A stretch of DNA of 64,000 nt from Pyrinomonadaceae bacterium (lineage in GTDB: Bacteria; Acidobacteriota; Blastocatellia; Pyrinomonadales; Pyrinomonadaceae). The notes beneath the pieces were generated by a model. It made no database searches and was not told the origin of the DNA. It saw nothing but the letters and a program-made list of their open reading frames with translations. Positions 10,589-59,063 of this stretch are shown in pieces (the first letter of the stretch is position 1; each line of letters starts with the position of its first letter). Both the position numbers and the translations under genes were made by a program. The stretch covers positions 3,097-67,096 of the forward strand of contig JBJXFZ010000072.1 of assembly GCA_046154245.1 (NCBI GenBank), read 5' to 3'.

Positions 10589-11015
10589 ATCGATTTGGGA
10601 TATGGGAATTATGATTTCGGATTTCTTTTCGCCTTTGACGTCTTGATAGCCGAAACGACTATCGAGACGATTTCGTCAAATTCGGACAAGAGCATCGCTA
10701 CCAAGTTCTGCTTGATCTGACCGGATTCAACTAACAGTTCTATCCAGTAAATGAATTCGTCCGATTCTTCTTCAACAATCGCCAGCTTATTAATAAAATC
10801 AGCGGTCGATTTGGCGCGACAAGCTGCCCGATAGTTCGCCCCAACTGAAGTGGCGCTGCGAAGCAATTGTCTGCCAAGAATATCTGATGTCTTGTTTTTT
10901 GGCAAGCTTTCGACGAGGCAAATTACACGCACCGATAACTGCTTCGTTCGGTCCATCATCTCCAGCTTTGTCATATGTAAATCCGCAATCCGAAATCACA
11001 AATCACTAATCGAAA
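10589..11015 (-). mobile_element. candidate IVS-like element: four-helix-bundle gene nested between imperfect 36-37 bp inverted repeats built of 7-bp-periodic GGATT/AATCC units
   Basis: Left arm 10589..10624 is ATCGATTTGGGATATGGGAATTATGATTTCGGATTT. Right arm 10979..11015 is AAATCCGCAATCCGAAATCACAAATCACTAATCGAAA. By hand alignment, 27 of 36 positions of the left arm match the reverse complement of the right arm. The arms abut the dprA start codon on one side and the tRNA-Sec 3' end on the other. Confidence 0.5.
10609..10974 (-). CDS. four-helix-bundle protein (23S rRNA intervening-sequence protein / Avd-like family)
   Basis: 121 aa. The family pattern is visible in QLLRSATSVGANYRAACRAKSTADFINKLAIVEEESDEFIYWIELL. 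The ORF termini are encoded by the flanking repeat arms (C-terminal ...KRNPKS*). Confidence 0.8.
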   Translation of the reverse strand: MTKLEMMDRTKQLSVRVICLVESLPKNKTSDILGRQLLRSATSVGANYRAACRAKSTADFINKLAIVEEESDEFIYWIELLVESGQIKQNLVAMLLSEFDEIVSIVVSAIKTSKAKRNPKS

Positions 11016-11115
11016 TGGCGGAGGCGTGTGGGAGTCGAACCCACCCAAGAGACGCTCTCGCGCTCTCGCAAACGGTTTTGAAGACCGCGCCCATCACCGG
11101 ACAGGATGCGCCTCC
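11016..11115 (-). tRNA. selC: tRNA-Sec (anticodon UCA)
   Basis: Minus-strand sequence GGAGGCGCATCCTGTCCGGTGATGGGCGCGGTCTTCAAAACCGTTTGCGAGAGCGCGAGAGCGTCTCTTGGGTGGGTTCGACTCCCACACGCCTCCGCCA. It folds with a 7-bp acceptor stem, a 6-bp D stem (CCTGTC/GATGGG) with the 4-nt loop typical of tRNA-Sec, an anticodon loop CTTCAAA (TCA), a long variable arm, a T arm GTGGG-TTCGACT-CCCAC and an encoded CCA. Confidence 0.85.
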
Positions 11116-35037: not shown

Positions 35038-35487
35038 ATGAACGAAAATTGCGAAAACGCGAAAGTCTTTCTCGACGAGCTCGTCGGCCAGCTCGGGTTT
35101 GATCTGTCAGTTTCTACTGAGTGGACGGACGAAGGTTGTTTGGTGAATCTTAGCGGCGAGGACTCGCACTTGGCGCTGGCAGAAAACGGTGAGCTGCTCG
35201 ATGCGTTTGAAACTGTATTGTTTCAGGCGTTTGGCCGCGGGATGGATCGCGAGCATCGCTTTGTCGTTGACGCTGAGGGGTTTCGCCAGACACGCAAAGC
35301 AGAGCTGCACGCGATGGCGCGATTCGCGGCGGATCAGGTTCGCAAGAACGGGCGTGCATTTACCTTTGGCGTTCTAAATTCCACCGAACGTCGCATCATC
35401 CACACCACTCTTCAGCAAGAAGACGACCTCATTACCGAGTCTGTCGGCGACGGCCGCGAACGGCGACTTCAAGTCCGTTTGCAATAA
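35038..35487 (+). CDS. jag: Jag/KhpB-like R3H RNA-binding protein
   Basis: 149 aa. R3H-like STERRIIHTTLQ. The conserved yidC-jag-mnmE gene order is present. Confidence 0.8.
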   Translation: MNENCENAKVFLDELVGQLGFDLSVSTEWTDEGCLVNLSGEDSHLALAENGELLDAFETVLFQAFGRGMDREHRFVVDAEGFRQTRKAELHAMARFAADQVRKNGRAFTFGVLNSTERRIIHTTLQQEDDLITESVGDGRERRLQVRLQ

Positions 35488-35496
35488 GCTCCAAAT

Positions 35497-35561
35497 AAAC
35501 AGGATGGGCAGGATAGACAGGATTCAATTTTTCTATCCTGTTCATCCTGTATATCCTGTTT
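35497..35561. repeat. CAGGAT-nonamer palindrome, copy A (ORF-less)
   Basis: AAACAGGAT-GGG-CAGGAT-AGA-CAGGAT ..11 nt.. ATCCTG-TTC-ATCCTG-TAT-ATCCTGTTT. It fills the jag-mnmE gap. Confidence 0.85.
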
Positions 35562-35566
35562 AAATC

Positions 35567-36949
35567 ATGCCTCAAACGATTGTCGCACTAGCAACACCCA
35601 CGGGCCGCAGCGGTATCGGCGTCGTGCGTCTGAGCGGCCAAGGTGCGTTGCGAATTACACAGTCGATAACCGCGGGCAGTTTTTCACCACGACCGCGTAC
35701 CGCACATTTAAGGCAGCTTGTAGATACAACATCGGGCGAGGTGATCGACGAGGCGCTTATCACCTATTTCAAGGCGCCTCATTCTTTCACCGGCGAGGAC
35801 GTAATAGAAATCAGCTGTCACGGCTCGCCGGTTTTGTTGCGACAAATCATCGACCTTTGTCTCGCCACGGGCGCTCGAATGGCGGAGGCAGGAGAGTTCT
35901 CTCTTCGCGCGCTCGCGAACGGCCAAATCAATCTCGCCGAGGCCGAGGCGATCCGCGATCTCATCGACGCGCAGACAACTGCGTCGGCGCGCCAGGCCGT
36001 GCGCCAAATGAGCGGCGAATTTTCACGTCAGTTGCAGCCGCTAAAAGATGAACTCCTGAATGTTATCGTCGTGCTCGAATCGGCGCTTGAGTTTGTCGAA
36101 GACGATCTGCCTGCGACGCAGGTTGAACGTTTGAGAACAAGCTTGACTGACATTGCCTGCGATGTCGCGAAACTCGCCGACACGTTTCGCGCCGGACACT
36201 TGATACGCGATGGCTTGCGTGTGGCGATCGTCGGCCGTCCGAATGTCGGTAAATCTAGCCTTTTCAATGCGTTGCTTGGCAGCGAACGAGCGATCGTAAC
36301 GGAAATCGCCGGCACGACCCGCGATCATCTTCACGAACGATTTACGATTCATAACATTCCGATCTCACTGATAGACACCGCCGGTTTGCGTGATACGACA
36401 GACATGGTCGAGAGCATCGGCGTCGCGCGCTCGCGGAGCTTGATGTCTGACGCCGACATTGTCGTCGTGATGCTTGACGTTAATGAGGAGATAACAGATG
36501 AAGATCAAGCGATCATCGAATCCGTCCGTGACATAACGCATCTATTCGCGTTGAACAAAATCGATAAGCTTCAAAACCGCGAGGATGACAGAGAGGTTTT
36601 GGAGCAAGTGAAATCCGCAATTGGCAATCCGCGATCCGCAATCGTATCGACTTCTGCAAAAACGGGCGAAGGCCTTGACGAGCTAAAACGCGCGATCATC
36701 GCACCATTCTCGGCCGACGATGTTAATACGTCGGGGTTCCTCGTAACCGACGCGCGTCACCACGACTTGCTCGTGCGAGCAAAAACCGAGATCGAAAACT
36801 CGATGGAGAATCTCGACCGAGAAATGAGCGAGGAGATCGTGCTCATTGGTCTGCACAACGCACTCCGCTACTTGGGCGAGATCACCGGCGAGACGACGAC
36901 CGAAGACATGCTGACACGAATATTCTCGACCTTTTGCATTGGCAAATAG
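35567..36949 (+). CDS. mnmE: tRNA modification GTPase MnmE
   Basis: 460 aa. G1 [15 protein letters not shown]3 DTAGLR, G4 NKID, C-terminal FCIGK. Confidence 0.95.
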
Positions 36950-42648: not shown

Positions 42649-44520
42649 ATGTTTGACGAGAATTTTGATGTGATAGTGATCGGTGCGGGACACGCAGGCT
42701 GTGAGGCCGCGTCTGCCTCGGCGCGTCTCGGCGCCGAAACCGCGCTGGTCACGATCAATCTCGATCTTATCGGGCAGATGTCGTGTAATCCGGCCGTTGG
42801 CGGCATTGCAAAAGGTCACGTCGTGCGCGAGATCGATGCGCTCGGCGGCATCATGGGCCGCGTGATCGATCGCACCGGAATTCAATTTCGGCTTTTGAAT
42901 CGCTCTCGCGGGCCGGCGGTTCAGTCACCACGCGCCCAGGCCGATCGAAGTCTGTACCGAACAGAGATGCGCCGGGTACTCGAAGCGACGCCAAATCTAC
43001 ATCTTCGCCAGGGCGTCGTGATTGACCTAATTGTTGACGATAAAAGAGTTATTGGCGTTGAGATGCAGGATACACGTCGGTTTGGCGCAAAAGCCGTCGT
43101 TGTCGCAACCGGAACATTTTTGAACGGCATGATCCATGCCGGACGGCAGACATTCTCCGCAGGTCGCGCCGGCGAACCGGCGTCAATCGAATTAGCCGAG
43201 AGTCTGAAGAAGCTTGGGTTTCCTGTCGGCAGGCTCAAAACCGGTACACCGCCCCGGCTCGATGGACGGACAATTGACTGGGATGCATTCGAGCCTCAAC
43301 CACCTGACGAAAATCCCGTCGCCTTTTCGTTTGCTACCGAAAGGATCGAGCAGGATCAGATCCAGTGCTTCATTGGTTATACGAGCGATCGGCTTCATCG
43401 GGCGATTCGCGACAATTTGCATCAGTCGCCACTATATTCCGGCAAGATCAAAGGTGTAGGACCGCGCTACTGCCCGTCAATCGAAGACAAGGTCGTAAAA
43501 TTTGCCGACAAAGATCGTCATCAACTTTTTCTCGAGCCAGAGGGCCACAACACAAACGAAGTCTATCTGAACGGGTTCTCGACATCGCTGCCGTCGACGC
43601 TGCAGCAAGAACTGCTGCAAATGGTTCCGGGGTTTGAAAGCGTCAAGATCGTCCGGCCGGGCTACGCGATCGAGTATGATTTCGTCGATCCGCGTGAAAT
43701 GCGACCGACCATGGAATCGTCCCGACTGGACGGACTTTTCCTCGCGGGGCAGATAAACGGCACAACCGGTTACGAGGAGGCGGCCTGTCAGGGATTGATG
43801 GCCGGAATCAACGCGGCATGCTCGGTACAAGGCCGTAAATCCGTTATTTTGCAACGAGATGAGGCGTATATCGGCGTGCTCGCCGACGACCTGATCCGGC
43901 ACGGGGTAGATGAGCCGTACCGACTGTTTACTTCGCGGGCCGAGGCAAGACTCACACTGCGACACGATAATGCAGATCAGAGGCTTTCGCCGAAGGGGCG
44001 GGAGATCGGTCTGGTCGGAGATACTGACTGGGAGCGATTTAGCAAAAAGCGTGATCGAATTGCCGCTTTGCGAAACGCGCTTGATCAAACTCGATTCAAG
44101 CGCTCGTCGCCGGAATATGCTGCCGTTTCGCAGGTCGTCGGTGCCGATCTCGGTGATTCGATAAATTTGTCGCAACTGGCGATGAGACCGGGCGTTAAAA
44201 ACGATTTGATCCTCCGATTGTTGAATGATGAGGATGTCCGTGTATCTGAGCTTGAGACTGCGCTTGCCGATTCGCTTTATAGCGGTTATATCGAAAAACA
44301 GCGTGTGGCGACCGAGAGGGTAAATCACCACGATACATTGCGGGTGCCTGATAATTTTCAATTCAGGACGATCGGCGGGCTCTCAAACGAGATGGTAGAG
44401 CGGCTCGAACGTGCTCGTCCGCAGAATTTCGCACAGGTTCGCAACATAGCCGGATTAACGCCGGCGGCGCTTTCCTCGGTATTAGTTCACTTAACCGCCA
44501 GCCAAACCCAGACAAATTAG
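42649..44520 (+). CDS. mnmG: tRNA uridine-5-carboxymethylaminomethyl synthesis enzyme MnmG (GidA)
   Basis: 623 aa. FDVIVIGAGHAGCEAA, with a full-length GidA pattern. Confidence 0.95.
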   Translation: MFDENFDVIVIGAGHAGCEAASASARLGAETALVTINLDLIGQMSCNPAVGGIAKGHVVREIDALGGIMGRVIDRTGIQFRLLNRSRGPAVQSPRAQADRSLYRTEMRRVLEATPNLHLRQGVVIDLIVDDKRVIGVEMQDTRRFGAKAVVVATGTFLNGMIHAGRQTFSAGRAGEPASIELAESLKKLGFPVGRLKTGTPPRLDGRTIDWDAFEPQPPDENPVAFSFATERIEQDQIQCFIGYTSDRLHRAIRDNLHQSPLYSGKIKGVGPRYCPSIEDKVVKFADKDRHQLFLEPEGHNTNEVYLNGFSTSLPSTLQQELLQMVPGFESVKIVRPGYAIEYDFVDPREMRPTMESSRLDGLFLAGQINGTTGYEEAACQGLMAGINAACSVQGRKSVILQRDEAYIGVLADDLIRHGVDEPYRLFTSRAEARLTLRHDNADQRLSPKGREIGLVGDTDWERFSKKRDRIAALRNALDQTRFKRSSPEYAAVSQVVGADLGDSINLSQLAMRPGVKNDLILRLLNDEDVRVSELETALADSLYSGYIEKQRVATERVNHHDTLRVPDNFQFRTIGGLSNEMVERLERARPQNFAQVRNIAGLTPAALSSVLVHLTASQTQTN

Positions 44521-44522
44521 TT

Positions 44523-44542
44523 GATGTGGCACGTGCCACATC
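44523..44542. promoter_or_regulatory. parS: candidate variant parS site 1
   Basis: Perfect palindrome GATGTGGCACGTGCCACATC. The core TGTGGCACGTGCCACA matches TGTTTCACGTGAAACA at 12 of 16 positions, with symmetric changes. It lies about 90 nt upstream of parA. Confidence 0.5.
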
Positions 44543-44556
44543 GGATCTCGCCCTCG

Positions 44557-44578
44557 AAATGTGGCACGTACCACATTT
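44557..44578. promoter_or_regulatory. parS: candidate variant parS site 2
   Basis: AAATGTGGCACGTACCACATTT has the same core with one asymmetric position. It lies about 50 nt upstream of parA. Confidence 0.45.
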
Positions 44579-44629: not shown

Positions 44630-45415
44630 ATGGGCAAGATAATCGCAGTCGCAAATCAAAAAGGCGGCGTGGGGAAAACAACCACGGCCGTAAACCTCGC
44701 CGCTGCGCTAGCCGGTGAGGACAGAAAGGTACTTCTTGTCGATGCTGATCCGCAGGCAAACGCCACATCGGGGGCCGGAATTGCACGAAATGTATCTCGC
44801 AAAACACTTTACGACGCTTTGGTGCTCGGCGAATCGCCCCGTGAAATGGTAATACCAACCGGCGTCCCAACGCTCTGGGTCCTGCCGTCAGACAAAAATC
44901 TTGCCGGGGCAGAGGTCGAGTTGGTCGAGACGGAAAATCGCCATTATGCCCTGAAAAACCTGTTGGCCAATGTAAAGGACTATTTTCATTACATCCTTAT
45001 TGATTGTCCTCCGTCGCTCGGTATCTTGACCGTAAACGGACTCACGGCCGCGGATTCGCTCCTGGTGCCGATCCAGTGTGAGTATTACGCTCTTGAGGGC
45101 GTGACCGAGCTTTTTGACACGCTTGCGAGACTCCGACGCGAACTAAACCCAAATTTGGCGATAGAGGGACTGTTGCTGACGATGTTTGACGAGCGTACAA
45201 ATCTCTCGACGGCGGTAGCGAAGGACCTTCGTGATTTTTATGGTTCGCAGGTACTGGAAACCGTAATTCCCCGGAATGTCCGGCTTGCCGAGGCGCCGAG
45301 TTTTGGGCAGCCGATAATGATATATGACCCTAAATCACGTGGTGCAGAGAGCTACAACCAACTTGCAAAGGAGATACTAAGAAATGCCGAGACAGTCTCT
45401 GGGGCGCGGGCTTAG
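44630..45415 (+). CDS. parA: chromosome partitioning ATPase ParA/Soj
   Basis: 261 aa with the deviant Walker A NQKGGVGKTTT. Confidence 0.95.
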   Translation: MGKIIAVANQKGGVGKTTTAVNLAAALAGEDRKVLLVDADPQANATSGAGIARNVSRKTLYDALVLGESPREMVIPTGVPTLWVLPSDKNLAGAEVELVETENRHYALKNLLANVKDYFHYILIDCPPSLGILTVNGLTAADSLLVPIQCEYYALEGVTELFDTLARLRRELNPNLAIEGLLLTMFDERTNLSTAVAKDLRDFYGSQVLETVIPRNVRLAEAPSFGQPIMIYDPKSRGAESYNQLAKEILRNAETVSGARA

Positions 45416-51572: not shown

Positions 51573-51965
51573 ATGATAGTCGGAACCGAATGGTTGATCG
51601 AGGCAACAGGGTGTGAAGCAGCCGCATTGCGCGATGAAGTTGCGATTCAAACACTGATGTCGCACGTCGTTGACGATCTCGGCCTTAAGACCGTCGGTTC
51701 AGTCTGGCATAAATTCGAAGGCGAGGGCGGCGTTACGGGTCTCATCGCTCTCACCGAATCACACCTTGCTTGTCACACATATCCCGAACACGGCGTCGCG
51801 ACATTTAATCTTTATTGCTGCCAAGCCAGACCCGTTTGGAACTGGGAAAAGCAGCTTAGGTTACGTCTTGGCGCGACCGACGTGACCGTGACCCAAATTG
51901 TTCGAGGCTCACGCGAGATGGGCGGATCAAGCGCGATCAGTTTTGGAGTTGGAGGCCGCGGATGA
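51573..51965 (+). CDS. speH: S-adenosylmethionine decarboxylase proenzyme (SpeH/class 1, pyruvoyl)
   Basis: GVTGLIALTESHLACHTYPEHG contains the ES self-cleavage site and the HTxPE motif. ATG 51573 is preferred to the track's TTG at 51546. Confidence 0.8.
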   Translation: MIVGTEWLIEATGCEAAALRDEVAIQTLMSHVVDDLGLKTVGSVWHKFEGEGGVTGLIALTESHLACHTYPEHGVATFNLYCCQARPVWNWEKQLRLRLGATDVTVTQIVRGSREMGGSSAISFGVGGRG

Positions 51966-53899
51966 CGACACTTGCTACAAACTGTCCCTCTTGCGCGGCG
52001 CCGATCGAGTTTAAGGCCGGTTCCACGCTGGTCGTTGTGTGTGCATTTTGCCGCTCGGCGATCGCTCGCACGGATCGCGGGCTCGAGGACATCGGCAAGG
52101 TTGCCGAGATCGTCGAGAGTCAATCACCCCTAAAGCTTGGATTAAAAGGTACTTACAACGGCAATCGGTTTGAGCTTACCGGACGGGCGCAGATTGGGCA
52201 CGAACTAGGCGGCGTCTGGGACGAGTGGTACGCGACCTTCTCAAATGGCTGGGTCGGCTGGCTCGCCGAGGCTCAAGGGCGATTTTACCTGACGTTTTAT
52301 CAACCGCTGCCGGAGGGCGGACAACTACCGACGTTCGCTGGTTTGCAGCTCGGCCAGATCGTCAGCGAGATTCCGAGTCAGACGCCATTGATGGTTCAGG
52401 AGAAAGGTCGTGCGACGACAATCGCGGCCGATGGCGAGATCCCATACAAACTCGTACCCGGCGAGCAATTTGAATATGCCGACCTCGCAGGCAAACAAAA
52501 TGCTTTTGCGACGATCGATTACAGCATTGATCCGCCGTGGGCGTTTGTCGGCTCTCAGGTGACGCTCGACGAGATCGGTTTGGCGGACGCAAAGCCGGTT
52601 ACGCGCGAGTTAAAGAGAGTCACGAGTGCAGCGATGGGCTGTCCGAATTGCGGCGGGCCGTTGTCGCTAAGCGCACCTGACAGCGCGATGCGCGTAACTT
52701 GTCCGAATTGCAGCTCACTGCTCGATGTCAATGAAGGCAAATTAACATATCTACAATCACTGACACCTCCGGCGGACGCGCCCGACTTTGTCGCGCCGAT
52801 CGGAGCCGAGGGGACTTTTGCAGGCGATGTGAAGTTCAAGATAATCGGCGCGACGGTTCGAAGCGTGACATTCGACGGCGTCAAATATTTTTGGCACGAA
52901 TATCTGCTCTACAATCCGTCGATCGGTTTCCGATGGCTCGTGCATTCTGATAATCATTGGAATTTTGTCGAGCCGGTCAACGCTGCCGAGGTTGAACAGA
53001 AAGAGATATTCGGCGCCATACGCAAGGTCGTCTGTAACGGAAAAAGCTACAGGATCTTTCAGGATGCACCCGCTACCGTCGAGTATGTAAAAGGCGAATT
53101 CTATTGGCGTGTGGAACAAGGCGAGACCGTTCGCGCGGTCGATTATGTCGCTGCGCCGATGATGCTCTCGCAAGAGGTTTCAGCAAACGAGGTCAACTGG
53201 TCCGCCGGGACATACATGACCAATGACGAGGTCGAAAAAGCGTTCGGCATCGAAGGATTGCCAAAACCGTGGAGCGTTGGACCAAACCAACCGTTTACCG
53301 GACAGTTTTATTACACTTGGGGAGCGTTGCCGCTGCTCGGTCTGTTTGTCGTCGCGTTGTTTATGATACCGTTCACCGGCATGACGAGCACGGTCCTTAG
53401 TGAAACTATCAACCTGCCGCCGTCGGCCGCGCCGCAGGTGCAGTTTAGTCAACCGTTTGAGCTAAAAGGAAATCGTAATATCCGCATCTCGGCGTCGGCG
53501 CCCGTTAACAATTCGGCAGCCGATCTCGATGTCGATCTCGTAAACGATCAAAGTCAGGAGATCGAGTCGGTGAGTATTCCCGTCTCATATTACCAGGGCG
53601 TTGAAGACGGTGAGAGCTGGTCGGAGGGCAGCACGGGCAATGACGCAATGTTGTCGTCACTGCCGGCCGGCAAATACACGCTTCGTGTCGAAGGCACGAC
53701 AGAAAACGTTCCCGCTCCGCTGCCAGTCACTCTCAAGGTCGAGCAAAACGTAAATCGCGGCGTAAACTTTTGCTGTGCGCTGCTGATCTTGGCGATCGTT
53801 CCGATCCTGGGTTTGTTTCGCAAGTTTTCATTCGAGCGAGGTCGTTGGCGCGACAGCATGTTTGGTTCGTCGAGCAGCGGCGGCTCGGATGATGAGTAG
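51962..53899 (+). CDS. DUF4178 domain-containing membrane protein with zinc ribbons
   Basis: 645 aa. ATGA overlap with speH. CPSCAAPIEF..CAFCRS and CPNCGGPLSL..CPNCSSLLD each precede DUF4178-like beta domains. Two TM segments. Confidence 0.7.
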   Translation: MTTLATNCPSCAAPIEFKAGSTLVVVCAFCRSAIARTDRGLEDIGKVAEIVESQSPLKLGLKGTYNGNRFELTGRAQIGHELGGVWDEWYATFSNGWVGWLAEAQGRFYLTFYQPLPEGGQLPTFAGLQLGQIVSEIPSQTPLMVQEKGRATTIAADGEIPYKLVPGEQFEYADLAGKQNAFATIDYSIDPPWAFVGSQVTLDEIGLADAKPVTRELKRVTSAAMGCPNCGGPLSLSAPDSAMRVTCPNCSSLLDVNEGKLTYLQSLTPPADAPDFVAPIGAEGTFAGDVKFKIIGATVRSVTFDGVKYFWHEYLLYNPSIGFRWLVHSDNHWNFVEPVNAAEVEQKEIFGAIRKVVCNGKSYRIFQDAPATVEYVKGEFYWRVEQGETVRAVDYVAAPMMLSQEVSANEVNWSAGTYMTNDEVEKAFGIEGLPKPWSVGPNQPFTGQFYYTWGALPLLGLFVVALFMIPFTGMTSTVLSETINLPPSAAPQVQFSQPFELKGNRNIRISASAPVNNSAADLDVDLVNDQSQEIESVSIPVSYYQGVEDGESWSEGSTGNDAMLSSLPAGKYTLRVEGTTENVPAPLPVTLKVEQNVNRGVNFCCALLILAIVPILGLFRKFSFERGRWRDSMFGSSSSGGSDDE

Positions 53900-53906
53900 G
53901 TAAATT

Positions 53907-54056
53907 ATGTTGAAGAAACTTTACGTGATATTTGCCGGCGGGGTTCTGCTGACGTATTCAGCCGCCGCGTGGTTCGGTTGGGAAGTTGCAAACTCCGGCA
54001 GCCGCTCGCGTTTGGGAACGCCGTTTTTCTATACGGGTTTTAGAGGAGGAAAATAA
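53907..54056 (+). CDS. 49-aa single-TM protein
   Basis: Below the track's size cutoff. Sequence MLKKLYVIFAGGVLLTYSAAAWFGWEVANSGSRSRLGTPFFYTGFRGGK*. The stop overlaps the next ATG (TAATG). Confidence 0.55.
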   Translation: MLKKLYVIFAGGVLLTYSAAAWFGWEVANSGSRSRLGTPFFYTGFRGGK

Positions 54057-54316
54057 TGTTAAGTCTGACAAATTTGGGCACGCTCGCCATGATCGTTAAA
54101 CTCGAAGACCTTTTGCCCGTCGCGGCAACTACGATCATCTTTGTCGCGATCGGCCTGATCGTTTTTACCATCGCGTTTTTGATCGTAGTGCTGGTATCAC
54201 CGTTCTCGGTCAAAAAAGAGATCGAAGAAGACCACAACACGGCGCTCGCTATCATCATCGGCGCGCTGATCATTGGTATCGCGATGATAATCGCTTCGGC
54301 TATTCAGGGAAATTAG
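54056..54316 (+). CDS. DUF350 (YjfL-like) membrane protein
   Basis: 86 aa with 3 TM segments. An acidic loop (KKEIEEDHNTA) is typical of DUF350. Confidence 0.7.
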   Translation: MLSLTNLGTLAMIVKLEDLLPVAATTIIFVAIGLIVFTIAFLIVVLVSPFSVKKEIEEDHNTALAIIIGALIIGIAMIIASAIQGN

Positions 54317-54319
54317 GGA

Positions 54320-54393
54320 TTCAAACAGGATAGGCAGGATGAGCAGGATAATTGCTTTTCTCTATCCTGTCGATCCTGTGCATCCTGTTTGAA
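54320..54393. repeat. CAGGAT-nonamer palindrome, copy B (ORF-less)
   Basis: TTCAAACAGGAT-AGG-CAGGAT-GAG-CAGGAT ..14 nt.. ATCCTG-TCG-ATCCTG-TGC-ATCCTGTTTGAA. Confidence 0.85.
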
Positions 54394-54401
54394 TTTCTAA
54401 C

Positions 54402-55925
54402 ATGAAACGCGCTCCGCTACTTTTTCTCAACGTCTTTGTCATCGCAACCTGCGGGCTCATCTACGAGCTGCTCGCTGCAACTCTCTCGTCCTATGTGCTT
54501 GGCGACAGCGTCACGCAGTTCTCACTCATCATCGGGATCTATCTTTTTGCGATGGGTGTCGGCTCGTATCTGTCAAAGTTTATCGACAAGAATGTCGCCG
54601 AGAAATTTATTGAGATCGAACTGGGGGTTGCGGTGATCGGGGGTTTTTCAGCCCCGCTTCTGTTCTTTGCGTTTGCGCACCTCACGTACTTCGCTCTCGT
54701 CTTATATGGCATAGTTTTTATCATCGGAACACTCGTTGGCCTCGAGATACCGTTGCTAATGCGTATCCTAAAAGATGAGCTCGACTTTAAAGATCTGGTT
54801 TCTCGCGTTCTCGCATTCGATTACATCGGCGCCCTGGCCGCATCACTGCTGTTCCCGATCTTTCTAGTGCCACGCCTCGGCCTTAACCGGACATCACTGC
54901 TTTTTGGCATGCTAAACGCAGCCGTCGGCATCTGGGCGACGTGGCTTTTGCTGCCGCTGCTAAAACGAAATGTGACATTGATGCGTGTAAAAGGCGCGGT
55001 GATTCTCGTGCTGCTCGCCATCGCGTTCATCAAGGCCGATCGCCTAACGACGCTCGCCGAGGACGCGCTGTTTGTCGATAACATCATTTATGCAAAAAGC
55101 TCGCCGTATCAACGCATCGTCGTCACAAAGGGCAAAACCGGCTACTCGCTTTTCCTGAACGGCAATCTGCAGTTCAACTCATTCGACGAATACCGTTATC
55201 ACGAGGCGCTCGTTCACCCCGCATTTGCGGCATTTAACGGCGAGCCGAAACGCGTGCTCGTGCTCGGCGGCGGCGACGGCCTCGCGGTTCGCGAAGTTTT
55301 GAAATACAAGTCAGTCGAACATGTCCAACTCGTCGATCTCGACCCCGAGATGACAAAAGTCTCGTCGTCGGTCCCCGCGCTGGGTGAACTGAATAACTAT
55401 GCACTCGACGACCCGCGCGTATCGATAACAAACACTGACGCATATGTTTGGCTCGACGACACGCAAACCGAGCCATTCGACATCGCGATCGTCGACTTTC
55501 CCGACCCGAACAATTTCGCTCTCGGCAAACTTTATACGACGCGTTTCTATAATTTGCTAAAAGCAAAACTCAGACCGGACTCATCCGTGGTGATCCAAAC
55601 AACATCACCGCTAATCGCCCGCAACTCGTTTTGGTGTGTTATGAAAACGCTTGAGGCGAGCGGCTACACGGTCAAACCGTTTCAAACAACGGTTCCGAGC
55701 TTTGGCGTTTGGGGTTTTGCCCTTGCGAAAACACAACCGTTCGAAACACCAGTTAAGCCGCGCGAGAACGTCGAATTGAAGTTTCTAAACAACGAGACCT
55801 TCGCGTCGATGTTCGAGTTTCCATCCGACACATCAAAACCGGCTGAAGAACTCGAGATCAACCGCCTCGACAACCAGGCGCTTGTCCGATACTACGAGAG
55901 CGAATGGCGGCGGTTTGAGCAGTGA
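54402..55925 (+). CDS. membrane-bound polyamine aminopropyltransferase (spermidine synthase-like)
   Basis: 507 aa. About 7 N-terminal TM segments, then an aminopropyltransferase domain (YHEALVHP, VLVLGGGDGLAVREVLKY, VDLDPEM, IVDFPDP). Confidence 0.8.
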   Translation: MKRAPLLFLNVFVIATCGLIYELLAATLSSYVLGDSVTQFSLIIGIYLFAMGVGSYLSKFIDKNVAEKFIEIELGVAVIGGFSAPLLFFAFAHLTYFALVLYGIVFIIGTLVGLEIPLLMRILKDELDFKDLVSRVLAFDYIGALAASLLFPIFLVPRLGLNRTSLLFGMLNAAVGIWATWLLLPLLKRNVTLMRVKGAVILVLLAIAFIKADRLTTLAEDALFVDNIIYAKSSPYQRIVVTKGKTGYSLFLNGNLQFNSFDEYRYHEALVHPAFAAFNGEPKRVLVLGGGDGLAVREVLKYKSVEHVQLVDLDPEMTKVSSSVPALGELNNYALDDPRVSITNTDAYVWLDDTQTEPFDIAIVDFPDPNNFALGKLYTTRFYNLLKAKLRPDSSVVIQTTSPLIARNSFWCVMKTLEASGYTVKPFQTTVPSFGVWGFALAKTQPFETPVKPRENVELKFLNNETFASMFEFPSDTSKPAEELEINRLDNQALVRYYESEWRRFEQ

Positions 55926-55935
55926 TAACAAATTA

Positions 55936-56327
55936 TTCAAACAGGATAGACAGGATAAAAAGGATGAAACATGAGGAACTGACATCACAAATAGGCGCTG
56001 GGTTCTTGGAGTCTGTTTACGAGAAAGCGCTGATCGTAGCATTTTCACAGCGAGGTTTGAATGTTAAGTCGCAAGTTGCACTGCAAGTGAATTTCCGTGG
56101 AGTAATCGTGGGAGATTTTTATGCAGATTTGATCATCGAAGAAAAGGTTTTGATCGAAATCAAGGCAGTTAGCAAAATTTCTCAGAACCATAAGGCTCAA
56201 ATAATCAACTGTCTCAATGCGACGGGTTTTGAAGTTGGTCCGCTCGTAAATTCTGGCACGGCCCGTATTGAGTATTTCAGATTTCATCCAAGCGACCATC
56301 CTGAACATCCTGTCAATCCTGTTTGAA
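55936..56327 (+). mobile_element. CAGGAT-nonamer palindrome, copy C, carrying a GxxExxY gene (candidate IVS-like element)
   Basis: The left arm 55936-55965 is TTCAAACAGGAT-AGA-CAGGAT-AAA-AAGGAT. The right arm 56298-56327 is ATCCTG-AAC-ATCCTG-TCA-ATCCTGTTTGAA. Confidence 0.6.
55964..56326 (+). CDS. GxxExxY protein (PD-(D/E)XK nuclease fold, PDDEXK_3-like)
   Basis: MKHEELTSQIGAGFLESVYEKAL... carries GFLESVY. The nuclease-like signature is ADLIIEEKVLIEIKAV. The start is created by the arm hexamer AAGGATG, and the stop lies in CCTGTTTGA of the right arm. Confidence 0.75.
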   Translation: MKHEELTSQIGAGFLESVYEKALIVAFSQRGLNVKSQVALQVNFRGVIVGDFYADLIIEEKVLIEIKAVSKISQNHKAQIINCLNATGFEVGPLVNSGTARIEYFRFHPSDHPEHPVNPV

Positions 56328-56334
56328 TAAATCC

Positions 56335-57945
56335 GTGAAACTTACTCGCCGCGAAATTTTAACCACATTCCTGGGCGCTCCGATCGCTCTCGCGGCGTGT
56401 CGCGATGTTTCAACGCGCCGGTTTCCCGATGGTGAGATCGTTGGACAGAATGTCGAGCTTGGTCACATCTTACGTGAGCGTCGAACCTTCGATGTTCCGC
56501 CCGGTAATTGGGAAACCAAAAAGGTCGCGATCATCGGCGGCGGCATCGCGGGTTTGACGGCCGCATGGAAATTTAAGAAAGAGAACTTCAATGATTTTGT
56601 TTTGCTTGAATTGGAACGCGAGATCGGCGGCACGTCAGCGAGTAGTCCGGGTCAGCCGGTGGGCTATCCGTGGGGAGCGCACTATCTGCCCGTTCCGTTT
56701 AAGGAGAACACTGAGCTTATAGAGCTACTTAGCGAAATGTCGCTCGTCGAAGGCCGCGATGATAGCGGCGAGTTGATCGTTAAAGAACAGTTTCTCTGCC
56801 GCGAGCCTGAGGAACGTGTCTATTACAAAGGCCGCTGGTACGAAGGTCTTTATCTGCACGTTGGCGAGAGCGAAGAGGACAAGCGACAGTTTGCCGAGTT
56901 TCAAAAGAAGATCGACTATTGGGTCAACTGGCGTGACGCGCTCGGGCAACGGGCGTTTATTGTTCCGGTTGCAAATTGCTCGACCGACACCGACGTCACG
57001 CAGCTTGACAAGATCACATTCGCAGATTGGCTCGCACAAAGCGGATTTACGAGCGAGCGGCTTATCTGGTATTGCGATTACGCGTGCCGCGACGACTACG
57101 GTTTGAAGCTCGATCAAACATCCGCGTGGGCCGGACTGTTTTATTTTTGTTCACGCGTTCGAAGGTCAGGCGCTGAGTCGCAGCCGTTCATTACTGTTCC
57201 TGAGGGCAATGGCCAGTTTGTAAATCATTTTTTTGAGAAGGTGAAAGACCGCGTGCGCCGATCGCAGATGGTCGTGTCAGTCGTACCGACGGCGAATGGC
57301 GTTGACGTTATTTGTCTTGATGGCGGCGAGTTACGCGGCATTCGTTGCGAACGCGCGATCTTTGCGTCGCCGATGTTTACGGCGCCGCATGTAATTCGTG
57401 GCTTTTCGGCGGATGCTCCGTTTGCAGCCACAGAATTTCACCACAACGCGTGGTTTGTCGCGAACTTATTTTTGAAAGACAGGCCCAAGCCACGCTTTGC
57501 AAAAGATTTTCCGCTTGCGTGGGACAATGTTTTATGCGAAAGCCCGTCGCTTGGCTACGTAACCGCGACGCATCAAAAGGGCATCGACTACGGCCCGACG
57601 ATTTTGACCTACTATTATCCGATGTGTCATGAGCCGAACGGCAGAACAAAGCTGTTTGATTATGACTGGCGGCAGCTTGCTGACGTTTGCCTCACCGATC
57701 TGTCGCGAGCTCACACGGACATTTACGAACTGACGACGCGAATCGATATTATTCGTTGGGGCCACGCGATGATCAGCCCGCGTCCAAATTTTATATGGAG
57801 CGGCGTGCGCGAAAAGGCGATGAAACCATATCGGAACATTCACTTCGCGCACACAGACCTGAGCGGCATCGCATTGTTCGAAGAGGCGTTTTATCATGGC
57901 CTTCGTGCTGCAGGCCAAGTAATAAAAGAAATTCAGACAGGATGA
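56335..57945 (+). CDS. Tat-exported FAD-dependent (amine-oxidase-like) oxidoreductase
   Basis: Twin-arginine signal KLTRREILTTFLGAPIALAAC. Dinucleotide fold VAIIGGGIAGLTAAW. The start could be GTG 56335 or TTG 56323 (the track's choice), which lies inside the palindrome arm. Confidence 0.75.
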   Translation: MKLTRREILTTFLGAPIALAACRDVSTRRFPDGEIVGQNVELGHILRERRTFDVPPGNWETKKVAIIGGGIAGLTAAWKFKKENFNDFVLLELEREIGGTSASSPGQPVGYPWGAHYLPVPFKENTELIELLSEMSLVEGRDDSGELIVKEQFLCREPEERVYYKGRWYEGLYLHVGESEEDKRQFAEFQKKIDYWVNWRDALGQRAFIVPVANCSTDTDVTQLDKITFADWLAQSGFTSERLIWYCDYACRDDYGLKLDQTSAWAGLFYFCSRVRRSGAESQPFITVPEGNGQFVNHFFEKVKDRVRRSQMVVSVVPTANGVDVICLDGGELRGIRCERAIFASPMFTAPHVIRGFSADAPFAATEFHHNAWFVANLFLKDRPKPRFAKDFPLAWDNVLCESPSLGYVTATHQKGIDYGPTILTYYYPMCHEPNGRTKLFDYDWRQLADVCLTDLSRAHTDIYELTTRIDIIRWGHAMISPRPNFIWSGVREKAMKPYRNIHFAHTDLSGIALFEEAFYHGLRAAGQVIKEIQTG

Positions 57946-57998
57946 AGAGGATACGCAGGATTGTTTGTATCCTGCTAATCCTGTCTATCCTGTTTGAA
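57932..57998. repeat. CAGGAT-nonamer palindrome, copy D (ORF-less)
   Basis: TTCAGACAGGAT-GAA-GAGGAT-ACG-CAGGAT-TGTTTGT-ATCCTG-CTA-ATCCTG-TCT-ATCCTGTTTGAA. The left arm contains the stop codon of the oxidoreductase gene. Confidence 0.85.
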
Positions 57999-58010
57999 TA
58001 AAGCGTCACG

Positions 58011-59063
58011 ATGGATGCGACAATAGCAAAACCGAACTACTGGCTCTTTTCCCGCGAGATCGATCTATCGGTTTTTCTCGGCAGTGCGCTTCTCTCGATG
58101 CTTCTGCTCGCGCTTGGTTGGCAGCTGGGCATTTTGAATGCAGACTCGCCCGAATGGACTTGGATCACTGCGGTGCTGCTGATCGACGTCGCGCATGTTT
58201 GGTCGACAAGTTTTCGCGTCTATTTTGATACTGCGGAATTCAAACGCAGGTTTTGGTTGTACTTGCTTGTGCCTGTTTTTGGCTACGCGATCGGCGTAGC
58301 GCTCTATTCCGAGGGCGATCTTGTCTTTTGGAAAGCATTAGCGATCGTCGCGGTGTTTCACTTTGTGCGCCAGCAATACGGCTGGGTCGCGTTGTATCGC
58401 CGCAAACTAAACGAGACGGCGACATGGACTTGGGTTATCGATGCCGCGGCGGTTTATCTTGCGACCATTTATCCGTTGGTGTTTTGGATGACGCGGCTGC
58501 CGCGCGAATTCAACTGGTTTGTAGCGAATGATTTCTTTTTGCTTCCAACGTTCGTCGAGCAAATCCTTTTCCCCGTCTACGTCCTTGCACTCGCGGCCTA
58601 CGCCGCAAAATCGATCTATCAATATTTCGCAAGTGGATTCTCAAACATCGGCAAAGACATCATAGTCGCGACGACCGCCGTCTGCTGGTACGTCGGGATC
58701 GTGTATTTCAACTCGGACTACGCGTTTACGGTCACAAACGTCATCATCCACGGCGTGCCGTATTTTGCACTTATCTACTTTTACGCGCGAGCGCGGCGCG
58801 AAACGGCCGGACCTTTTTACCGGGCTTTCTCACAGAATTGGGTGATATTTCTCACGACGCTCTGGGCTCTCGCCTATGTGGAAGAATTATTCTGGCATCG
58901 CGGTGTTTGGCACGAGCAGCAATGGCTGTTTGGCGCCGACTGGAATTGGCAAAACTTGAAAACTTACATCGTCCCGCTGCTCGCCGTGCCGCAACTGACG
59001 CATTACGTGCTCGACGGTTTTATCTGGCGAAAGAAAAGCAATCCGAACCTAAATTTCATCTAA
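58011..59063 (+). CDS. hypothetical polytopic membrane protein with conserved His motifs
   Basis: 350 aa with about 9 TM segments. His-containing blocks HVWSTSFRVY, FHFVRQQYGW, IIHGVPYF and HYVLDGFIWRKK. Confidence 0.55.
   Translation: MDATIAKPNYWLFSREIDLSVFLGSALLSMLLLALGWQLGILNADSPEWTWITAVLLIDVAHVWSTSFRVYFDTAEFKRRFWLYLLVPVFGYAIGVALYSEGDLVFWKALAIVAVFHFVRQQYGWVALYRRKLNETATWTWVIDAAAVYLATIYPLVFWMTRLPREFNWFVANDFFLLPTFVEQILFPVYVLALAAYAAKSIYQYFASGFSNIGKDIIVATTAVCWYVGIVYFNSDYAFTVTNVIIHGVPYFALIYFYARARRETAGPFYRAFSQNWVIFLTTLWALAYVEELFWHRGVWHEQQWLFGADWNWQNLKTYIVPLLAVPQLTHYVLDGFIWRKKSNPNLNFI

Follow-up and report, generated by a model that had tools for sequence, protein, structure and literature searches.

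We analyzed a stretch of 64,000 nucleotides (nt) from a Pyrinomonadaceae bacterium (GenBank assembly GCA_046154245.1, contig JBJXFZ010000072.1; the whole stretch is called the window below) in which four palindromes built from CAGGAT units separate co-oriented genes. On balance we consider these four loci to be members of a widespread group of co-transcribed, hairpin-bounded selfish cassettes that resemble the intervening sequences (IVSs) of 23S rRNA, have derivatives without an open reading frame (ORF) and have partly been co-opted by their hosts. Comparison with other genomes reveals a multi-phylum family of sense-oriented intercistronic cassettes whose cargo is either a GxxExxY protein or a four-helix-bundle protein and which are gained, lost and replaced among close relatives. 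Good evidence further indicates that some copies at least are under constraint as functional RNA structures. The CAGGAT family is large and apparently undescribed.

Architecture of the CAGGAT palindromes and their cargo

Direct reading of the sequence located the palindromes at 35497-35561, 54320-54393, 55936-56327 and 57932-57998 (copies A to D; Table 1). A search for CAGGATNNNCAGGATNNNCAGGAT (CAGGAT-N3-CAGGAT-N3-CAGGAT) with at most two mismatches returned eight arm matches in the window, two per locus and on opposite strands, where 0.00 were expected from 100 shuffles of the window. The CAGGAT hexamer alone occurs 45 times against 21.9 expected, the surplus being the palindrome arms. The original prediction, which was made from the letters of the window, had thus placed all four palindromes correctly. 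It was equally right about the arm variants (AAGGAT in copy C, GAGGAT in copy D and the AAATAAAC/GTTTAAAT ends of copy A), about the co-orientation of the flanking genes and about copies B, C and D occupying successive gaps of one operon. It had further proposed that a hexamer repeated every 9 bp is conserved rather than a plain stem. The periodicity holds, but the unit is the heptamer ACAGGAT followed by two variable nt with a period of 9 nt, and a stem does form. The position before the hexamer is mostly paired and carries A in 72-100% of cases, while the other two spacer positions obey Watson-Crick pairing in about 40%. The stem consequently takes the form of a series of 7-bp helices broken by small internal loops.

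RNA folding of the arms, suggested at the outset, gave -37.4 to -48.6 kcal/mol for the short copies, with copy B folding better in the sense orientation (-48.6 kcal/mol, z -9.3) than in antisense (-40.9 kcal/mol), and the arms of copy C pair around the enclosed ORF. The outer clamp of the window copies is TTCAAA...TTTGAA, replaced at other loci by TTTTGA/TCAAAA or TTTAGA/TCTAAA. Spacers and loops differ among all four copies whereas the heptamers are kept, indicating selection on, or regeneration of, the heptamer.

The palindromes fit tightly between their neighbors. Copy A lies between the TAA stop codon of the upstream gene (35486-35488; named jag-like from reading its translation only) and the mnmE start codon at 35567. 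In copy B the DUF350 stop codon (TAG, 54314-54316) falls within the base of the stem and the speE start codon follows at 54402. The oxidase ORF runs into the left arm of copy D, where its TGA stop codon is found (57943-57945), and the next ATG stands at 58011. From the end of the right arm to the next start codon we measured 4, 1-8, 4-7 and 12 nt for copies A to D, the predicted distance having been 5-12 nt. The lack of a GGAGG-type Shine-Dalgarno sequence in these gaps had been regarded as distinctive, but most genes of the window lack one: GGAG or GAGG occurs within 18 nt upstream of the first start codon in only about 8 of 37 ORFs of at least 150 aa. Judged from the window ORFs, Shine-Dalgarno use seems low in this genome.

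Hairpins at such positions might be intrinsic transcription terminators or attenuators between genes. We regard this as highly improbable. The hairpins are stable, lie in intergenic DNA and have a moderately T-rich right clamp (TTTGAAT), but a terminator scan called none of three hairpins, the 30-bp stems contain internal loops and are followed by no U-tract, and the next start codon of a conserved operon follows within 1-12 nt; one copy encloses a translated gene.

That gene, in copy C, encodes a protein of the GxxExxY family, as had been predicted (TIGR04256, 2.4e-30, 105.3 bits with a cut-off of 35; PF13366, 6.3e-30, 104.4 bits with a cut-off of 22). The ATG overlaps the final left-arm unit (AAGGATG), and at the other end of the ORF the right arm supplies the final nine codons (HPEHPVNPV), followed by a TGA stop codon inside the TTTGAA clamp. 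The same arrangement recurs family-wide: among the 120 closest homologues, HPxHPVNPV-like tails are found in most and an initial MDRIDRM in many, both of which are translated arms. Distant members carry other repetitive tails, for example MNADxRR.../...IRVHPRxSA or NPxNPxNP, which implies that these would correspond to other arm types. In these sequences the arms form an integral part of the GxxExxY gene. A complete copy accordingly has an outer clamp, a 5' arm of two to five ACAGGAT-NN units, a 3' arm of their complements and, between the arms, a gene. This gene starts in the ...AGGATG of the last 5' unit, and the 3' arm forms its last ~9 codons ([HNDY]-P-V repeats) and its stop codon.

The window gene retains the invariant columns of the family (G24, E27, Y30, D66, E76 and K78) and the catalytic D/E/K residues. 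It is nevertheless probably decaying, because, compared with relatives of 131 aa, it lacks 11 internal amino acids (residues 10-20, in helix 1) and carries substitutions at conserved or near-invariant positions (F108S and an L-to-P change). The GxxExxY family is very large, with 15,714 clusters at 50% identity. An AlphaFold2 model (mean predicted local distance difference test score 91.7) displays a minimal PD-(D/E)XK fold with a disordered C-terminal tail. Its best structural neighbors are Cas4 SSO0001, 3IJM and nucleases of the lambda-exonuclease type at template modelling scores of ~0.5-0.57; the modelled fold is only generically Cas4/lambda-exonuclease-like and gives no substrate. A search for a solved homologue found no PDB sequence match for GxxExxY, and PADLOC returned no defence-system match for either GxxExxY or the four-helix-bundle cargo. 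Many cluster representatives of 250-277 aa (P0121-P0123, P0130, P0136 and others) contain two matched stretches and are tandem two-domain proteins.

Table 1. Positions of the cassettes, their parts and adjacent genes in the window
Feature	Position	Strand	Description
Copy A	35495-35562	+	ORF-less palindrome between jag-like (R3H) gene and mnmE
Copy A arms	35496-35523 / 35535-35562	+	11-nt loop; RNA fold -37.4 kcal/mol, z -8.1
Copy B	54313-54400	+	ORF-less palindrome filling the gap between DUF350 and speE-like genes
Copy B arms	54320-54349 / 54364-54393	+	Stem extends over 54313-54400
Copy C	55933-56330	+	Full cassette; left arm 55936-55966, right arm 56297-56327
Cargo gene of copy C	55964-56326	+	GxxExxY / PDDEXK_3 nuclease-fold protein, 120 aa
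Copy D	57932-57998	+	ORF-less palindrome between amine oxidase gene and next gene
Copy D arms	57932-57961 / 57969-57998	+	RNA fold -38.0 kcal/mol, z -6.6
Host operon of copies B, C and D	51962-59063	+	Gene order conserved in 80 metagenomic relatives
DUF4178 protein	51962-53899	+	Host operon
DUF350	54056-54316	+	Host operon
SpeE-like polyamine aminopropyltransferase	54402-55925	+	Host operon
Flavin amine oxidase-like protein	56335-57945	+	Host operon
350-aa protein of unknown function	58011-59063	+	Host operon
Fifth element	10599-11011	-	Four-helix-bundle (23S rRNA IVS protein family) cassette
Fifth-element ORF	10609-10974	-	121 aa; PF05635 1.5e-18, TIGR02436 5e-25
Fifth-element arms	11011-10987 / 10623-10599	-	GATTnnn heptamers; from inverted-repeat scan
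tRNA-Sec	11020-11115	-	Rfam RF01852, 67.3 bits

Turnover at orthologous operon junctions

A metagenome scan with the SpeE-like protein provided 80 loci (79-90% identity) with conserved gene order, in which the three junctions that hold copies B, C and D in the window could be compared (loci are cited by our L numbers). At the junction between speE and the oxidase gene, about 27 loci are empty, with overlapping stop and start codons. A GxxExxY cassette with CAGGAT or CAGGGAT arms occupies the junction in ~14 loci, and a four-helix-bundle cassette with heptamer arms does so in about 15 or more, its left arms being GATAACT/GAAAACT ... ATG arrays. Another ~9 loci hold an insert of two genes (78 aa and 154 aa), and remnants occur as well. 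All of the more than 30 junction cassettes are sense-oriented and several of their cargo genes are frameshifted or truncated. This junction seems to serve small selfish genes as a general landing site. At the junction between the oxidase gene and the next gene, ~30 loci with both genes found include 8 empty sites and 5 CAGGAT hairpins, that of the window among them; other unit families, ordinary hairpins or inserted ORFs are present at the other loci. Wherever a CAGGAT hairpin fills this gap, the oxidase ORF ends within its left arm. The junction states are scattered over the speE tree. Presence/absence and replacement polymorphism, as would befit the insertions originally envisaged, is therefore clear in these metagenomic relatives.

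Two of the other inserts deserve description. The two-gene insert (L172, 5556-6238; likewise L153, L165, L174, L176, L179, L181, L185, L194 and L196, which form one clade) comprises a 78-aa ORF (MQTNIETIYQ...) and, behind it, an overlapping 154-aa ORF, and by eye has the look of a VapBC/PIN-type toxin-antitoxin pair, with no NCBIfam match and no periodic arms seen. In L125 and L126 a non-periodic hairpin with 25 bp of perfect pairing (GTAGCCCGCACGTAAGTAAGGGCTC...GAGCCCTTACTTACGTGCGGGCTAC) stands in the place of copy D behind the oxidase gene.

The junction between DUF350 and speE behaves differently from the two others, which are empty in many close relatives. Here a hairpin of -20 kcal/mol or lower is found in 70 of 72 distinct gap sequences, the exceptions being L158 with a gap of 3 nt and L190 with a weak fold. 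Each of these 70 distinct hairpins fills its gap, the stem beginning at a median of 3 nt past the stop codon and ending at a median of 2 nt before the start codon. The repeat unit varies by lineage and belongs to the CAGGAT, AAGGAT/AGGGAT, GGAAAAT, GACGCGG, AGAAGTC, GATGAAT, GATAACT, GATAAGT or GAGAGT family.

How one occupant gives way to another is suggested by closely related pairs. In L142 and L143 speE is 97.2% identical at the nucleotide level and the cargo is truncated in the same way, but the hairpin between DUF350 and speE is of the AAGGAT type in L142 and of the CAGGAT type in L143. The two diverge from ~35 nt within DUF350 up to the very ATG of speE, a pattern that marks allelic replacement by homologous recombination. 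Cargo and host genes are also decoupled in their identity (97% for speE and 69% for the cargo in L173/L164; 90% and 54% in L188/L182), indicating that the same junction repeatedly received different cassettes.

ORF-bearing and ORF-less copies are joined by a graded deletion series that runs from full cassettes of ~450 nt through 363, 262, 153, 128 and 101 nt to hairpins of ~70 nt. In L131 the first 25 GxxExxY codons are fused directly to the right arm. The series agrees with the earlier proposal that the ORF-less copies are derivatives: the cargo decays, and internal deletion leaves hairpins without an ORF, of which copies A, B and D are examples. Elements also seem to lie inside one another. 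L173 has an outer GAATTCAAAC/GTTTGAATTC clamp around an inner TTAACAGGGAT hairpin, which suggests that new elements insert into existing hairpins. More generally, the gap between DUF350 and speE has a nested look in L173, L177, L194 and L175 (134-183 nt), where remnants of the clamp and arms of one unit family enclose the hairpin of another. No target-site duplication was recognizable when filled and empty sites were compared.

RNA-level constraint and the question of host function

We examined selection on the stem in 13 clearly orthologous CAGGAT hairpins from the gap between DUF350 and speE, which share their spacers, have similar loops and can be described by a structure of 27 pairs. Paired cells make up 96% of the alignment. 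Among the cells that are not Watson-Crick pairs, 40 are G.U in the mRNA sense, two are A.C (G.U in antisense) and 12 are other mismatches; 11 pairs of the stem vary only through G.U. All 10 of 10 CAGGAT sequences folded better in sense than in antisense, the mean difference being 11 kcal/mol. In the GGAAAr family the sense fold was better in 10 of 12, with 53 G.U pairs in sense and 15 in antisense. Because orthologous stems vary almost exclusively through sense G.U pairs, the stem is maintained at the RNA level: in at least two families it is kept as a structure of the transcript and not as a DNA cruciform or a protein-binding sequence.

These data bear directly on the possibility that the palindromes are arrays of binding sites for a host regulator, either a CsrA-like RNA binder or a DNA repressor reading hexamers every 9 bp. 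We consider such an explanation improbable. The substitutions obey RNA pairing rules instead of preserving sequence, and the heptamers are paired in a very stable stem, not shown in loops. Conservation of ACAGGAT across phyla with free spacers and loops would suit a regulator, as would the fixed order of the arms (62 against 4 among the matches listed, see below), but orthologous sites carry the unrelated units GGAAAAT, GACGCGG, GATAACT and AGAAGTC in the same architecture. Moreover, the sites are intercistronic rather than at promoters, and a promoter scan gave nothing specific. CsrA deserves mention since the CAGGAU(G) unit presumably resembles its consensus from systematic evolution of ligands by exponential enrichment as well as the CsrB repeat. 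CsrB-like small RNAs that titrate CsrA present GGA in loops or single strands, whereas all GGA motifs here are inside the stem. With other unit families at the same site and the GGA motifs paired, we rejected CsrA as a general explanation.

A more serious alternative is that the hairpins are intercistronic mRNA elements which the host selects to set the relative expression of adjacent cistrons, by translational coupling or masking, by protection from exonucleases or as processing sites, in the manner of palindromes of the repetitive extragenic palindrome/bacterial interspersed mosaic element (REP/BIME) type or of the puf-operon hairpins. The small ORFs would then be secondary passengers that insert into hairpins. 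The nearly constant occupancy of the gap between DUF350 and speE, the conservation of the stem as a sense-strand RNA helix and the position of stop and start codons at its base all speak for this, and they fit the translational-coupling structures that the original prediction had named as its alternative. The nested look of L173, L177 and L194, as if elements land in old hairpins, points the same way, and heptamer repeats just 5' of start codons have been proposed as translational regulators (PMC4679880). We nevertheless think host-selected elements unlikely as an explanation. At the two other junctions, stop and start codons simply overlap without an insert in many close relatives, which means that the operon works without hairpins there. 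Several unrelated unit sequences serve one site, some copies are visibly decaying (L149), and the identical heptamer is found across phyla and in unrelated operons. Finally, the arms lie within the cargo reading frames family-wide and the deletion intermediates lead towards loss of the ORF, not towards its insertion.

We therefore return to IVS-like selfish cassettes as the reading that we favor, and several observations weigh against it. No transposition signature was found, that is, neither a duplication nor identical copies at different sites. Neither cargo (PF13366, PF05635) is a known transposase or recombinase. Heptamers that are kept while spacers and loops differ are unlike a recent burst of miniature inverted-repeat transposable elements (MITEs). 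The AAGGAT and GACGC families lack the sense/antisense bias in G.U pairs. The DUF350-speE gap is nearly always occupied and under purifying selection at the RNA level, which can equally be read as host function. Lastly, the gene context of the cross-phylum copies was not cleanly readable, the long-ORF heuristic being too noisy (L009 and L056 were read by eye). Of the interpretation first put forward, an IVS-like selfish family is largely upheld by recurrence, polymorphism, the deletion series and PF05635 cargo in the same architecture, while hairpins in 70 of 72 DUF350-speE gaps and the conservation of an RNA helix speak against its purely selfish, MITE-like side.

Selfish origin and partial co-option can be reconciled by a scheme in which the hairpin itself makes the insertion tolerable. 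Folding would loop out the insert and set the stop and start codons face to face, so that the stem restores the stop/start juxtaposition of the ancestral overlapping junction; the same logic would apply to an IVS in 23S rRNA. Translation of the operon could survive the insertion by termination-reinitiation or through unmasking by the upstream ribosome. By analogy with 23S IVSs, the long stem may be a substrate of RNase III and the insert may be excised. With the original junction overwritten, the hairpin would be hard to lose, would be retained by selection and at some sites would effectively be co-opted. Placement in a new gap is probably catalyzed or targeted by cargo proteins that recognize the periodic arms, and spread between related strains would proceed via homologous recombination of the whole junction.

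Distribution, a second cargo and relation to known systems

The expectation that the pattern recurs elsewhere was borne out on a large scale. The exact 24-nt pattern of three CAGGAT-N3 units was found at no fewer than 120 loci in a collection of species-representative genomes. The matches listed come from Acidobacteriota, Verrucomicrobiota, Planctomycetota, Chloroflexota, Gemmatimonadota, Bacteroidota, Desulfobacterota and Methanoperedens; about half of them form the same palindrome and the remainder are single strict arms or coding repeats. Within 200 nt, the arms of the listed matches are ordered CAGGAT..ATCCTG in 62 cases and in reverse in 4, and only two or three of the palindromes enclose a GxxExxY ORF. 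No rRNA was found near the hairpins in 18 cross-phylum loci checked, nor in the window. A phage origin was rejected: only one of 120 loci on matching viral contigs is palindromic and nearly all others are coding tandem repeats.

Inverted arrays of other units adjoin CAGGAT palindromes in L071, L072 and L091 (CACGAAG/CTTCGTG) and in L074, L039 and L017 (CGCAGAGA-like). The presence of such arrays on the same contigs, which come from other phyla, indicates that several unit families coexist in one genome. The loops look alike across unit families (..GCGGTTCT.., TTGCTTTTC), a likeness that is inseparable from the purine-to-pyrimidine switch at the loop and for which we claim no homology.

The window holds a fifth element of this architecture, which the earlier description had missed. 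It contains a four-helix-bundle gene of the 23S rRNA IVS protein family whose last codons (NPKS*) lie in the right arm, and it fills the gap between tRNA-Sec and the start of dprA (10588), all in the same orientation. The cassette thus appears to be co-transcribed with tRNA-Sec. On a Gemmatimonadota contig (L065, 144-331 and 666-775) a CAGGAT palindrome of -82 kcal/mol follows two tRNA genes, a context that echoes the tRNA-Sec setting of the fifth element. The two cargo types differ in the period of their arms. Among four-helix-bundle cassettes, 16 of 16 well-extracted left arms repeat every 7 nt, the unrelated unit of the fifth element included, while 13 of 15 GxxExxY cassettes show a spacing of 9 nt (10 cases) or 8 nt (3 cases); both counts are inflated by common descent at one site. 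The separate fifth locus of the window and the cross-phylum GxxExxY cassettes L014 and L030 agree with the rule, and as far as these arms go cargo type predicts arm period.

Among published systems, the IVSs of 23S rRNA in Leptospira, Coxiella, Salmonella and others are closest. They comprise an often decaying S23p ORF and a 28-bp stem of terminal inverted repeats, are excised by RNase III, are sporadically spread and have an unexplained origin (PMC4990558). The elements described here share the long transcript stem formed by terminal inverted repeats (~30 bp, -37 to -49 kcal/mol) and the optional small S23p ORF (PF05635/TIGR02436), which is present in the fifth element and in about 20 cassettes at the speE junction. 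Unlike 23S IVSs, which reside in helix 25 or 45 of 23S rRNA, the five elements of the window lie between protein genes or by tRNA-Sec, their arms consist of tandem units of 7-9 nt, and copy C carries PF13366 with gene ends encoded by the arms. A search of the literature available to us found no paper supporting GxxExxY as a classical 23S IVS cargo, as had been stated at the outset, and none on hairpin cassettes, GxxExxY function or CAGGAT repeats. Heptamer direct repeats (TAACTGA) in Beggiatoaceae, Cyanobacteria and Bacteroidetes end a few nt before start codons in gaps without a canonical ribosome-binding site and are patchily distributed across phyla (MacGregor 2015, PMC4679880). The left arms of four-helix-bundle cassettes are arrays of the same kind. 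TAACTGA repeats were described without inverted partner or cargo and read as regulator binding sites (PMC4679880), whereas the arrays here are inverted pairs that form hairpins enclosing genes. 23S IVSs and TAACTGA repeats are the closest published descriptions and neither covers hairpin cassettes in mRNA operons, which look like non-ribosomal cousins of the former.

Mobile elements offer partial parallels. As in MITEs and other non-autonomous transposons, inverted repeats mark the termini, copies are numerous and an ORF-bearing element has derivatives that lack the ORF, but the genes carried encode a PD-(D/E)XK protein of 130 aa or a four-helix bundle, neither of them a known transposase, and no target-site duplication is recognizable. 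REP/BIME-type palindromes affect the mRNA stability and translation of neighboring genes. With these, and with the system of REP doublets forming hairpins and REP-associated tyrosine transposases (REPIN-RAYT), our elements share the abundance of palindromes between co-transcribed genes, a minority of which flank a protein gene as inverted arms while most lack an ORF. They differ in that the cargo is no Y1/HUH RAYT, that the ends are TTCAAA/TTTGAA without a GTAG motif and that the arms are periodic and partly translated; in contrast to REPs and MITEs, copies in the same genome share only the heptamers and not spacers or loops. Like integron attC cassettes, they are small promoterless genes with an imperfect palindrome, in one orientation, transcribed by the host and exchanged at a fixed site. 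However, their palindrome brackets the gene rather than following it, and they occupy ordinary operon junctions without integrase or attI. At gathering thresholds an Rfam scan of the window detected only the tRNA-Sec, and an E-value scan of 54250-58050 gave only sub-threshold look-alikes of miRNA precursors.

If the palindromes are IVS-like cassettes, 23S rRNA IVSs would originate as the rRNA-resident subset of general transcript-resident hairpin cassettes. Two very large orphan families, GxxExxY and the four-helix-bundle '23S IVS protein', would gain a context. A common type of intergenic hairpin and the spurious 'HPVNPV / MDRIDRM' tails in Acidobacteriota, Verrucomicrobiota, Planctomycetota, Chloroflexota and others would be explained, and a natural system would be at hand to study how an operon with coupled cistrons tolerates an insert of 70-450 nt between them. 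Software for gene calling and operon prediction should recognize these cassettes. We also speculate, with considerable doubt, that each cargo reads its own arms as an address array, GxxExxY those with units of 8-9 nt and the Avd-like, probably pentameric four-helix bundle those with units of 7 nt, in a hitherto unrecognized class of transcript-resident, hairpin-targeting cassettes that insert into existing intercistronic or rRNA hairpins. Cargo would then be swapped at fixed junctions, thousands of ORF-less hairpins would be left behind on which hosts then depend, and 23S rRNA IVSs and 'TAACTGA repeats' would be special cases of one system.

Apart from the CAGGAT family, and unrelated to it, the window contains two copies of a near-perfect 18-bp palindrome (ATGTGGCACGTGCCACAT / ATGTGGCACGTACCACAT) at 44524-44576. 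They are 17 nt apart, lie between the ORFs 42649-44520 and 44630-45415 and have an operator-like look.

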